Origin: a virus
Taxonomy: Duplodnaviria > Heunggongvirae > Uroviricota > Caudoviricetes
IMG/VR virus record: IMGVR_UViG_2529292726_000016
Direction: 5' to 3' (one strand)
DNA length: 5,545 nt
Shown piece after piece: positions 1 through 5,545 of the stretch. A model generated the notes under the pieces. The model saw nothing but the letters and a program-made list of their open reading frames with translations. It did no database searches and was not told where the DNA came from. The stretch's first letter is position 1. Every line of letters starts with the position of its first letter. A program made the position numbers and the translations under genes.

Positions 1-141
1 CAGCGAAGGCAGTAACAAGCGCGACTTGATGTCGCACTGAAGGGTGCGGCCAGTATAGTTGGCGCGAGTCGGCAAAACTAGTTGACGTCTAATATCGGCA
101 ACTTTGGCGGCTTCCTTTCCATTAACAAACTTTCGCAGTAA
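1..141 (+). other. Possible 3' remnant of the upstream tail gene (gpL-like tail tip protein); not open in any forward frame across this stretch
   Basis: Frame 1 has TAA at 13..15 and TAG at 79..81, then a 19-codon open stretch (LTSNIGNFGGFLSINKLSQ) ending at TAA 139..141, 5 nt before the K ATG. Frame 2 stops at 38..40, 56..58 and 83..85; frame 3 stops at 27..29 and 90..92. The terminal peptide resembles what I recall of the lambda gpL C-terminus, and frame 3 encodes CRTEGCGQ (gpL-type proteins have C-terminal cysteines), but I cannot verify either. Confidence 0.3.
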
Positions 142-146
142 ATCCC

Positions 147-890
147 ATGACACAGACAGAATCAGCGATTCTGGCGCACGCCCGGCGATGTGCGCCAGCG
201 GAGTCGTGCGGCTTCGTGGTAAGCACGCCGGAGGGGGAAAGATATTTCCCCTGCGTGAATATCTCCGGTGAGCCGGAGGCGTATTTCCGTATGTCGCCGG
301 AAGACTGGCTGCAGGCAGAAATGCAGGGTGAGATTGTGGCGCTGGTCCACAGCCACCCCGGTGGTCTGCCCTGGCTGAGTGAGGCCGACCGGCGGCTGCA
401 GGTGCAGAGTGATTTGCCGTGGTGGCTGGTCTGCCGGGGGGCGATTCACAAGTTCCGCTGTGTGCCGCATCTTACCGGGCGGTGCTTTGAGCACGGGGTG
501 ACGGACTGTTACACGCTGTTCCGGGATGCTTATCATCTGGCGGGGATTGAGATGCCGGATTTTCATCGCGAGGATGACTGGTGGCGTCACGGTCAGAATC
601 TCTATCTGGATAATCTGGAGGCCACGGGGCTGTATCAGGTGCCGTTGTCAGCAGCACAGCCGGGCGATGTGCTGCTGTGCTGTTTTGGTTCATCGGTGCC
701 GAATCATGCCGCCATTTACTGTGGTGATGGCGAGCTGCTGCACCATATTCCTGAACAACTGAGCAAACGAGAGAGGTACACCGACAAATGGCAGCGACGC
801 ACACACTCCCTCTGGCGTCACCGGGCATGGCGCGCATCTGCCTTTACGGGGATTTACAACGATTTGGTCGCCGCATCGACCTTCGTGTGA
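147..890 (+). CDS. K: Tail tip assembly protein K (JAB/MPN metallopeptidase plus NlpC/P60 cysteine peptidase), long form
   Basis: ORF 147..890, 247 aa, TGA stop at 888..890. Complete JAMM signature H68-x-H70-x7-S78-x2-D81 (HSHPGGLPWLSEAD, nt 348..389) with a candidate upstream Glu (E19). Downstream is an NlpC/P60-like region with candidate catalytic Cys121 (GVTDCYTLF) and His residues (PNHAAIYCGDGELLHH). Start is uncertain: ATG 147 has no clear SD but lies 5 nt after a TAA; internal ATG 291 (MSPEDW) has GGAGG at 275..279 and would give the 199-aa form annotated in lambda, which lacks the N-terminal part of the JAB fold. Confidence 0.9.
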   Translation: MTQTESAILAHARRCAPAESCGFVVSTPEGERYFPCVNISGEPEAYFRMSPEDWLQAEMQGEIVALVHSHPGGLPWLSEADRRLQVQSDLPWWLVCRGAIHKFRCVPHLTGRCFEHGVTDCYTLFRDAYHLAGIEMPDFHREDDWWRHGQNLYLDNLEATGLYQVPLSAAQPGDVLLCCFGSSVPNHAAIYCGDGELLHHIPEQLSKRERYTDKWQRRTHSLWRHRAWRASAFTGIYNDLVAASTFV

Positions 891-1459
891 AAACGGGGGC
901 TGAAGCCATCCGGGCACTGGCCACACAGCTCCCGGCGTTTCGTCAGAAACTGAGCGACGGCTGGTATCAGGTACGGATTGCCGGGCGGGACGTCAGCACG
1001 TCCGGGTTAACGGCGCAGTTACATGAGACTCTGCCTGATGGCGCTGTGATTCATATTGTTCCCAGAGTCGCCGGGGCCAAGTCAGGGGGCGTATTCCAGA
1101 TTGTCCTGGGGGCTGCCGCCATTGCCGGATCATTCTTTACCGCCGGAGCCACCCTTGCAGCATGGGGGGCAGCCATTGGGGCCGGTGGTATGACCGGCAT
1201 CCTGTTTTCTCTCGGTGCCAGTATGGTGCTCGGTGGTGTGGCGCAGATGCTGGCACCGAAAGCCAGAACTCCCCGTACACAGACAACGGATAACGGCAAA
1301 CAGAACACCTATTTCTCCTCCCTGGATAACATGGTTGCCCAGAGCAATGTTCTGCCCGTTCTGTACGGTGAAATGCGCGTGGGGTCACGGGTGGTTTCTC
1401 AGGAGATCAGCACGGCAGACGAAGGGGACGGTGGTCAGGTTGTGGTGATTGGTCGCTGA
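788..1459 (+). CDS. I: Tail assembly protein I (N-terminal ubiquitin-like beta-grasp domain ending in Gly-Gly, then hydrophobic Gly/Ala-rich segment)
   Basis: ORF 788..1459, 223 aa, TGA at 1457..1459, the same length as lambda gpI. RBS-like GAGAGG at 771..776. Residues 14-101 end in ...HIVPRVAGAKSGG (Gly-Gly codons at 1085..1090). Next comes a roughly 55-residue hydrophobic stretch with repeated GxxxG/AxxxG spacing (VFQIVLGAAAIAGSFFTAGATLAAWGAAIGAGGMTGILFSLGASMVLGG), then a polar C-terminal tail. The 5' end overlaps the K 3' end by 103 nt in a different frame. Confidence 0.9.
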   Translation: MAATHTLPLASPGMARICLYGDLQRFGRRIDLRVKTGAEAIRALATQLPAFRQKLSDGWYQVRIAGRDVSTSGLTAQLHETLPDGAVIHIVPRVAGAKSGGVFQIVLGAAAIAGSFFTAGATLAAWGAAIGAGGMTGILFSLGASMVLGGVAQMLAPKARTPRTQTTDNGKQNTYFSSLDNMVAQSNVLPVLYGEMRVGSRVVSQEISTADEGDGGQVVVIGR

Positions 1460-1477
1460 TGCAAAATGTTTTATGTG

Positions 1478-1500
1478 AAACCGCCTGCGGGCGGTTTTGT
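1478..1500 (+). promoter_or_regulatory. Stem-loop in the I-J intergenic region (weak terminator or attenuator-like, or an mRNA structural element)
   Basis: Perfect inverted repeat AAACCGCC (1478..1485) / GGCGGTTT (1490..1497) around loop TGCG, followed by T-rich sequence (ttttgtcgttt). It lies between the I stop (1459) and the J RBS (GGAG 1508..1511, ATG 1520). Confidence 0.4.
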
Positions 1501-1519
1501 CGTTTATGGAGCGTGAGGA

Positions 1520-2515
1520 ATGGGTAAAGGCAGCAGTAAGGGGCATACCCCGCGCGAAGCGAAGGACAACCTGAAGTCCACGCAGTTGCTGAGTGTGATT
1601 GATGCCATCAGCGAAGGGCCGATTGAAGGTCCGGTGGATGGATTAAAAAGCGTGCTGCTGAACAGTACGCCAGTGCTGGACAGTGAGGGGAATACCAATA
1701 TCTCCGGCGTCACGGTGGTGTTCCGGGCAGGTGAGCAGGAGCAGACACCGCCGGAGGGATTTGAATCCTCCGGCTCCGAGACGGTGCTGGGTACGGAAGT
1801 GAAGTACGACACGCCGATTACCCGGACCATCACGTCTGCAAACATCGACCGTCTGCGCTTTACCTTCGGTGTGCAGGCACTGGTGGAAACCACCTCAAAG
1901 GGGGACCGGAATCCGTCGGAAGTCCGCCTGCTGGTTCAGATACAGCGTAACGGTGGCTGGGTGACGGAAAAAGACATCACCATTAAAGGCAAAACCACCT
2001 CGCAGTATCTGGCCTCGGTGGTGGTGGATAACCTGCCGCCGCGCCCGTTCAACATCCGGATGCGCAGGATGACGCCGGACAGCACCACAGACCAGCTGCA
2101 GAACAAAACGCTCTGGTCGTCATACACCGAAATCATCGATGTGAAACAGTGCTACCCGAACACGGCACTGGTCGGCGTGCAGGTGGACTCGGAGCAGTTC
2201 GGCAGCCAGCAGGTGAGCCGTAATTATCATCTTCGCGGGCGCATTCTGCAGGTGCCGTCGAACTATAACCCGCAGACGCGGCAATACAGCGGTATCTGGG
2301 ACGGAACGTTTAAGCCGGCATACAGCAACAACCCGGCCTGGTGTCTGTGGGATATGCTGACCCACCCGCGCTACGGCATGGGGAAACGTCTTGGTGCGGC
2401 GGATGTGGATAAATGGGCGCTGTATGTCATCGGCCAGTACTGCGACCAGTCAGTGCCGGACGGTTTTGGCGGCACGGAGCCGCGCATCACCTGTAATGCC
2501 TGGCTGACCACGTAG
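1520..2515 (+). CDS. J: J N-terminal fragment (331 aa) ending at the in-frame amber codon
   Basis: ORF from the track, MGKGSSKGHTPREAKDNLKSTQLLSVIDAISEGPIEGP..., the conserved N-terminus of lambda-family J proteins. Terminates at TAG 2513..2515. Confidence 0.8.
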   Translation: MGKGSSKGHTPREAKDNLKSTQLLSVIDAISEGPIEGPVDGLKSVLLNSTPVLDSEGNTNISGVTVVFRAGEQEQTPPEGFESSGSETVLGTEVKYDTPITRTITSANIDRLRFTFGVQALVETTSKGDRNPSEVRLLVQIQRNGGWVTEKDITIKGKTTSQYLASVVVDNLPPRPFNIRMRRMTPDSTTDQLQNKTLWSSYTEIIDVKQCYPNTALVGVQVDSEQFGSQQVSRNYHLRGRILQVPSNYNPQTRQYSGIWDGTFKPAYSNNPAWCLWDMLTHPRYGMGKRLGAADVDKWALYVIGQYCDQSVPDGFGGTEPRITCNAWLTT

Positions 2516-4918
<2,403 letters not shown>

Positions 4919-4935
4919 ATTTTATAACCCAGAAC

Positions 4936-4963
4936 GGGCGTCAGAAATGACGCCTTTTTTATT
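4936..4963 (+). terminator. Rho-independent terminator between J and lom
   Basis: Perfect 7-bp GC-rich stem GGCGTCA (4937..4943) / TGACGCC (4948..4954) with GAAA tetraloop, immediately followed by TTTTTTATT (4955..4963). It sits 18 nt downstream of the J stop. Confidence 0.75.
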
Positions 4964-4984
4964 GCAGAAAAGCGAGAGGTAATT

Positions 4985-5545
4985 ATGCGTAAACTTTATG
5001 CCGCCATTTTGTCCGCAGCCATTTGTCTGGCCGTATCCGGTGCGCCTGCATGGGCGTCTGAACATCAGTCCACGCTGAGCGCTGGGTATCTTCATGCCCG
5101 GACGAACGTTCCCGGCAGTGATGATCTGAACGGGATTAACGTGAAATACCGTTATGAGTTTACGGACACACTGGGGCTGGTTACGTCATTCAGCTATGCA
5201 GGAGACAAGAATCGCCAGCTGACCCATTACAGCGATACCCGCTGGCATGAAGATTCCGTGCGTAACCGCTGGTTCAGCGTGATGGCGGGGCCGTCTGTAC
5301 GCGTGAATGAATGGTTCAGCGCGTATGCGATGGCAGGCGTGGCTTACAGCCGTGTGTCGACTTTCTCCGGGGATTATCTCCGCGTAACTGACAACAAGGG
5401 GAAAACGCACGATGTGCTGACCGGAAGTGATGACGGTCGCCACAGCAACACGTCTCTGGCGTGGGGGGCTGGCGTGCAGTTTAACCCGACCGAATCCGTG
5501 GCCATTGATATTGCTTATGAAGGCTCCGGCAGTGGCGACTGGCGC
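4985..5545 (+). CDS. lom: Lom outer-membrane protein (Ail/Lom/PagC/OmpX family beta-barrel), 5' partial, runs off the window end
   Basis: ATG at 4985 with SD GAGAGG (4973..4978). The frame is open to the window end (187 codons): MRKLYAAILSAAICLAVSGAPAWA|SEHQSTLSAGYLHARTNVPGSDDLNGINVKYRYEFTDTLGLVTSFSYAGDKNRQL.... It has a typical Sec signal peptide with an AWA-S cleavage site and alternating aromatic/hydrophobic beta-strand patterns, and matches lambda Lom as I recall it. It is absent from the ORF track only because no stop falls inside the window. Confidence 0.92.
   Translation, partial: MRKLYAAILSAAICLAVSGAPAWASEHQSTLSAGYLHARTNVPGSDDLNGINVKYRYEFTDTLGLVTSFSYAGDKNRQLTHYSDTRWHEDSVRNRWFSVMAGPSVRVNEWFSAYAMAGVAYSRVSTFSGDYLRVTDNKGKTHDVLTGSDDGRHSNTSLAWGAGVQFNPTESVAIDIAYEGSGSGDWR

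Follow-up and report, generated by a model that had tools for sequence, protein, structure and literature searches.

The product of lom, an outer-membrane protein, is widely cited as being expressed from prophages, yet in the lambda-type tail context a conserved terminator directly precedes the gene and no promoter is recognizable. What the hairpin between the tail gene J and lom does, and where lom transcripts could come from, are the questions raised by one such junction, located in a 5545-nt stretch of tailed-phage DNA (IMG/VR record IMGVR_UViG_2529292726_000016; hereafter the window). An earlier note, made from the letters of the window alone, had described this hairpin, here called T1, as a terminator that parts the late tail operon from lom. 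Our analysis supports the hairpin but changes its place in the operon: T1 with its T-run (4936–4963) is probably a Rho-independent terminator of the plus strand that stops unmodified polymerase, is read through by Q-modified polymerase and insulates lom and stf.

The junction and its setting in a decaying prophage copy

The window, a piece of a lambda-like prophage, carries the distal tail genes, which all lie on the plus strand. The features referred to below are as follows:

1–94, plus strand: 3' end of ISEc10 (IS21-like), istB side, with a 100% match over 1–96 in many E. coli genomes
147–890, plus strand: K, with JAB and NlpC/P60 domains (Pfam)
788–1459, plus strand: I
1520–4918, plus strand: J, the tail-tip/host-specificity gene (3399 nt), with five gpJ domains and an in-frame amber codon inside
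2513–2515, plus strand: in-frame TAG inside J (CAG to TAG), a single C-to-T change
4922–4930, plus strand: TTATAACCC block just after the J stop, nearly invariant among 31 aligned spacer variants
4936–4955, plus strand: predicted terminator hairpin T1, with 5' arm (G)GGCGTCA, loop GAAA and 3' arm TGACGCC(T)
4955–4963, plus strand: U-tract TTTTTTATT, the predicted RNA release region, with T6 at 4955–4960
4974–4979, plus strand: Shine-Dalgarno sequence of lom, GAGAGG, 5 nt before the ATG
4985–5545, plus strand: lom, an Ail/Lom outer-membrane beta-barrel gene, of which the first 187 codons are present and which runs past the window end

The closest complete genome is that of E. coli 510016 (NZ_CP025851), in which an annotated gpJ is followed by an Ail/Lom family outer-membrane beta-barrel protein. 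Over 729–5545, the amber codon at 2513–2515 is the sole difference between this genome and the window. It splits J into two ORFs (1520–2515 and 2531–4918) that share one frame and both carry Pfam gpJ domains, gpJ also being the annotation of J in the nearest genome copies; J is thus broken in this copy. At the other end of the window, homology to the prophage begins at position 95, where ISEc10 is joined to the last ~16 codons of L, and no L reading frame is open across 1–94. The ISEc10 end therefore cuts gene L and breaks the late tail operon immediately ahead of K. With an ISEc10 end in L and an amber codon in J, this prophage copy is decaying, and whatever role T1 has in an intact phage, late read-through at this locus may have been lost. 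The J–lom region itself is very common and was matched in 4825 of 5426 complete E. coli genomes.

The assignment of Lom to the Ail/Lom family, proposed in the earlier note, is borne out by Pfam: residues 1–187 of the 199-position profile PF06316 (Ail_Lom) are matched at E = 2.9e-113 and 376.8 bits (cut-off 23). The full lom of 199 amino acids is annotated in the nearest genome, and the protein is 47% identical to lambda Lom. The gene also has its own ribosome-binding site, as had been noted, and diversity in the 30 nt before its ATG is low (pi 0.013), like that of codon positions 1 and 2 and below that of position 3 (0.075).

Anatomy of T1 and chance expectation

The J stop codon TGA (4916–4918) and the lom ATG (4985) are separated by a 66-nt spacer (4919–4984) that reads ATTTTATAACCCAGAAC-G-GGCGTCA-GAAA-TGACGCC-TTTTTTATT-GCAGAAAAGC-GAGAGG-TAATT. 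T1 starts 18 nt past the J stop codon and lies on the same strand as J. Its parts are GGCGTCA (4937–4943), GAAA (4944–4947) and TGACGCC (4948–4954), with an optional outer wobble pair between G4936 and U4955. The 7-bp stem, GAAA loop, T6 run, 66-nt spacer, GAGAGG motif and coordinates given in the earlier note all agree with the sequence. Its wording of a 'GC stem' is accurate for five of the pairs only, the seven Watson-Crick pairs being five G-C and two A-T, plus one G-U. The free energy of T1 is -13.0 kcal/mol, and the fold of the whole spacer is more stable than expected on both strands (z = -3.0 on the plus and -2.3 on the minus strand). In the opposite, minus-strand orientation the hairpin runs into CGTTCTGGG and has no T-run after it.

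T1 was the top terminator-like match in a consensus scan (8 pairs, 5 GC, loop 4). A loose terminator scan as a whole was not above chance, with 6 sites in the window against 4.6 +/- 2.3 in shuffles, and strict criteria were therefore applied, namely a stem of 7 or more perfect Watson-Crick pairs with 4 or more GC, a loop of 3–8 and 6 or more T among the 8 positions that follow. Under these criteria T1 is the only match in the window on either strand, for an expectation of 0.006 matches per window on average (1000 dinucleotide-preserving shuffles).

Other identities for the spacer were considered as well. An Rfam search of the whole window with E values up to 1 matched no family, and the spacer therefore does not correspond to any described sRNA or riboswitch. 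The prophage sRNA HnrS was set aside, as it has been placed only within the late genes of prophages with no link made to the T1 site, and so was the 24B_1 RNA, which is located downstream of lom in a different phage type. An alternative fold acting as an anti-terminator or sequestering the ribosome-binding site was likewise rejected, the only such contact in the minimum-free-energy fold being 3 bp long (ACC/GGU).

Conservation of the hairpin among J–lom junctions

Junctions were sampled independently of the hairpin sequence, by Lom protein similarity (80 viral contigs) and by an exact match to the 24-nt ribosome-binding block, which lies downstream of the hairpin (120 more stretches). This yielded about 210 J–lom junctions with 33 distinct spacer variants, 31 of which were aligned. 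Among these about 210 junctions, three perfectly paired stem types occur: GGCGTCA/TGACGCC, GGCGCCA/TGGCGCC and GGCACCA/TGGTGCC. Imperfect copies number only three or four: there are intermediates with a single mismatch, one copy looks recombinant, and one is a deletion where lom is decayed. Across the alignment of 31 variants, pairing holds in 98% of cells, and two pairs have changed on both sides (GC to AU and CG to UA). The observed pairing or covariation score was reached by 0 of 500 shuffles, and sliding the 3' partner by 1–3 columns brought pairing down to 32–62%. The pairing of T1 is thus under selection and the hairpin is a real structure, in keeping with the terminator-like hairpin after J that the earlier note had described; it lies on the plus strand and is kept by compensatory changes. 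The loop varies (GAAA, GGAA, GAGA and the reverse-complemented TTTC), and T6 is kept in nearly all of the about 210 relatives.

Lambda itself (NC_001416, about 18920–18944) has a hairpin at the equivalent place, past the J stop and ahead of the ribosome-binding site of lom, on the same strand. Like T1, it has a tetraloop and is followed by a T-rich run, and a second hairpin and stf lie beyond lom. The tail and the ribosome-binding segment look homologous to those of the window (TTTTATT...GAGAGGT). The lambda stem differs and is weaker, CGTCCG-GGAA-CGGGCG forming 6 pairs, one of them G-U, at -9.7 kcal/mol versus -13.0 kcal/mol for T1. It is followed by TTTTATTAT, where the U-tract is only T4 and then ATTAT, and the spacer is 61 nt versus 66 nt long. 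The TTATAACCC block is missing from it. The lambda-type spacer is invariant among 35 copies and, being without variation, gives no covariation data.

Compensatory changes would equally preserve a palindrome that works on DNA, as a protein-binding site or a recombination site, and two further observations suit such a role: the loop is flipped with the stem kept in three loci (L055 and L121 among them; GGCGCCA-TTTC-TGGCGCC), which looks like a palindrome inverted in place, and the repeat or its immediate flank has been hit by IS insertions. The wobble pairs argue against it. GGTGCCA/TGGCGCC in L147, the lambda stem CGTCCG/CGGGCG and the outer G-U pair are compatible with pairing in plus-strand RNA only; in DNA and on the minus strand such variants are mismatches. 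The same architecture is also built from another sequence in lambda, and the adjoining T-run and the position just after a stop codon are typical of a terminator. Chance is excluded by the shuffle tests of pairing and covariation and by the strict-criteria count, which bears on the related view that the repeat is a neutral relic. A function at the level of DNA, or none at all, is accordingly the least credible account of T1.

Two loci that had been taken for mosaic module junctions at the hairpin, L009 and L041, proved to be insertions of IS4- and IS66-family elements. In L009 (about 1441–1460) the IS4-family element stands in place of the 5' arm of the hairpin, and in L041 (about 1445–1480) the IS66-family element separates the T-run from the ribosome-binding site.

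T1 within the late operon

Taking in relatives, whose sequence extends beyond the window end, the gene order is J–T1–lom–T2–stf–tfa on one strand. T2 is the hairpin between lom and stf (GCCCGCC-GGTTCA-GGCGGGC followed by T6) and, at -18 kcal/mol, is stronger than T1. It was found after lom in 198 loci as well as in lambda, with G-U variants of its own; its positions are, for example, 10086–10150 in L002 and 1587–1650 in L001 (lambda 19586–19649). The succession of lom, a second hairpin and stf is shared by lambda and by functional phages, PhiR46_1 among them. It also holds for the neighbour whose sequence is identical over 4500–5545, from the 3' end of J through the spacer into lom. Among the 198 stf junctions, lom is upstream of stf in 197, and the exception, L266, is a rearrangement with its breakpoint in T2 and not a lom-less J–stf junction; no lom-less J–stf junction was found within the same family. 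Because stf lies on the same strand beyond lom and T2, late transcription must pass both hairpins, and the late operon therefore cannot end at T1. The earlier note's statement that the hairpin separates the late tail operon from lom thus does not hold in the sense of closing the operon.

In lambda, production of the full late transcript depends on Q, and polymerase modified by Q passes terminators without stopping (PMC10695390; PMC7547250). By analogy, we infer that T1 terminates transcription conditionally, with read-through by Q-modified polymerase and an insulating role for lom and stf. An 8-pair hairpin of -13 kcal/mol with a GAAA loop would form in the RNA 18 nt past the J stop, and UUUUUUAUU directly after it would release ordinary RNA polymerase. 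Polymerase coming from the late promoter and modified by the Q antiterminator would, if lambda biology applies here, ignore both T1 and T2, and late lytic growth would then see expression of all four genes, J, lom, stf and tfa. Unmodified polymerase, in a repressed or decayed prophage, would be halted at T1, so that stray tail-gene transcription would be kept out of lom and stf. K-12 Rac is without J and T1, and K-12 3'-end data are therefore unusable for T1.

If Q-modified polymerase ignores the terminator in lytic growth, selection in functional phages could act on RNA stability instead. The hairpin might then work post-transcriptionally as a block to 3'-to-5' exonucleases after cleavage, stabilizing J and tail mRNA relative to lom and stf mRNA and thereby setting their ratio, with termination secondary. 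The presence of two similar hairpins at successive gene borders, and of a third just before the stf ribosome-binding site in Gifsy-2, would suit such a function. The T-run, in comparison, is as conserved as the stem, and a terminator requires a T-run but an exonuclease barrier does not. We consider a primary role in mRNA stability unlikely.

The same layout can be compared with the pR'/tR'/Q control region, in which an intrinsic terminator within the transcription unit is read through only by Q-modified polymerase, as proposed here for T1 (PMC7547250; PMC10695390). The two differ in that tR' is a promoter-proximal regulatory switch, whereas T1 is found at a gene border some 20 kb further downstream and, unlike tR', has no promoter or Q-binding site associated with it. 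The Q gene, its binding site and the late promoter pR' lie outside the 5.5-kb window.

T1 is a real and selected structure and, on our reading, an ordinary, unannotated intrinsic terminator, and its kind of element is thoroughly known. The classical lambda maps, reportedly those of Luk and Szybalski in 1983, are said to list late-operon terminators t'J1–t'J4 beyond J. The lambda records and the nearest E. coli and phage records that we inspected annotate coding genes only, with no terminator at J–lom, and our literature searches returned no paper specifically describing a J–lom terminator or a lom promoter. T1 adds a well-supported, unannotated terminator to the map of a very common E. coli prophage family.

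Where lom transcripts could come from

Lambda lom has been reported in the literature to be expressed in lysogens and has been linked to adhesion; in an array study, lom was not detected in a lysogen (PMC2147009). Little is known of the lom promoter in the literature. In the window, a consensus scan found no sigma-70 site upstream of lom, and a position-weight scan of 4400–5030 found no promoter-like site within 500 nt upstream of the gene, the best score being 7.2 bits. For reference, the weak lambda pRM scores 9.7, lacUV5 13.7 and the consensus 18.4 bits with the same weights, which are approximate values after published compilations; the scans covered sigma-70-type promoters only. Both scans agree with the earlier statement that the spacer holds no convincing sigma-70 promoter. 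They do not favour its suggestion that the lom promoter lies inside the J 3' end, a location that is also awkward because transcripts started there would meet T1. Downstream of T1, only 24 nt lie between the T-run and the lom ATG, too short a distance for a promoter plus leader.

An efficient T1 with no promoter beyond it would not account for the expression of lambda lom reported in lysogens. Two candidate sources of lom mRNA in a lysogen are left, namely leak-through at T1 and an atypical promoter. The origin of lom transcripts in lysogens is the one point of modest interest here.

The TTATAACCC block, nearly invariant in the 31 spacer variants and 7–10 nt upstream of the hairpin, bears on the second option. 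It contains the -10-like hexamer TATAAC (4923–4928), from which a weak promoter could start transcription at about 4935, and the hairpin would then be the 5' end of a lom-specific transcript. Such a start would account for lom expression in lysogens with no need of a promoter beyond T1. The stem-loop could protect the 5' end of the lom mRNA, or a short terminated RNA could be made as in pR'–tR', a pair of outcomes for which we see only a slim chance. The hexamer has no usable -35 element and no acceptable extended -10, scores poorly and is not among the best-scoring sites (top 7.2 bits). It ends in C instead of the critical T and is altered in some relatives (CATAAC in L055, and in L087). The block with its hexamer is also missing in lambda, though lambda keeps the hairpin. 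A promoter at this site, with T1 as the 5' end of its transcript, is therefore very improbable.

Related proposals take T1 to be the control point of lom in lysogens. We would give little credence to the version in which the TTATAACCC box drives a weak atypical promoter at the hairpin foot and read-through is conditional. It is equally doubtful that the region acts as a miniature pR'–tR'-like unit, yielding either a short RNA that is terminated or a lom mRNA with a hairpin cap at its 5' end. In the simpler form, lom in this prophage family would be a strictly Q-dependent late gene and not a lysogenic-conversion gene, which we likewise regard as highly unlikely. A conditional terminator read through by Q-modified polymerase remains our preferred reading of T1.

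Comparison with accessory genes of other lambdoid phages

The morons of HK97 and HK022 (Juhala et al. 2000; Cumby et al. 2012, PMC3594210) resemble lom in that an accessory gene in the tail operon is flanked by terminator-like hairpins, and HK97 has annotated putative terminators beside the gp22 and gp23 morons of its tail operon, which are precedents for a terminator such as T1 in this setting. In HK97 itself, J is next to stf without lom, and the J–stf spacer is unrelated in sequence. A canonical moron consists of promoter, gene and terminator, whereas lom has a hairpin upstream, no detectable promoter and a GC content that is not distinct (0.50–0.59, compared with 0.46–0.56 in the J 3' part and 0.51–0.58 in the stf 5' part). 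The moron label attached to lom in the earlier note thus fits only partly: a downstream terminator is present in the form of T2, an own promoter of the sigma-70 type and a distinct composition were not detected, and the status of lom as a moron with its own promoter is unproven.

Members of the same Ail/Lom family occur in the tail or late regions of other lambdoid phages, such as Gifsy-2 (STM1043) and 933W-like Stx phages, where a terminator hairpin likewise lies downstream of the gene. The upstream spacers of these homologs differ from the J–lom spacer; they are AT-rich, 86–98 nt long and without a hairpin, and are promoter-like, as in the textbook moron layout. Their positions differ as well, the Gifsy-2 homolog lying between M and L and the 933W-like homologs after the tail-fibre genes. 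In Gifsy-2, J is followed by a small ORF and then by stf, with the Lom homolog elsewhere.

Directly before the stf ribosome-binding site of Gifsy-2 (L325, 38237–38289) lies the hairpin GCCTGCC-TGCG-GGCGGGC followed by T6, the upstream gene being the small ORF and not lom. A hairpin just ahead of stf thus recurs across genera.

Further observations on the loci sampled

The best sigma-70-like match of the window is antisense inside J, on the minus strand at 3897–3870 (TTCACA, a 16-nt gap and AATAAT; 10 of 12). In one viral contig, L154, the lom ribosome-binding block occurs twice, at 4289–4312 and 5785–5808, and these two copies 1.5 kb apart suggest that the lom region has been duplicated in tandem. 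A contig scan aimed at varied Lom loci yielded mainly lambda itself, present in unrelated genera, and added few contexts. Lambda-identical lom loci (L093–L104 and others) were found in assemblies of such genera as Neobacillus, Kitasatospora, Pseudomonas and Shewanella, some of them on contigs of low coverage and about 48.5 kb in length; these loci look like lambda DNA contamination or spike-in.
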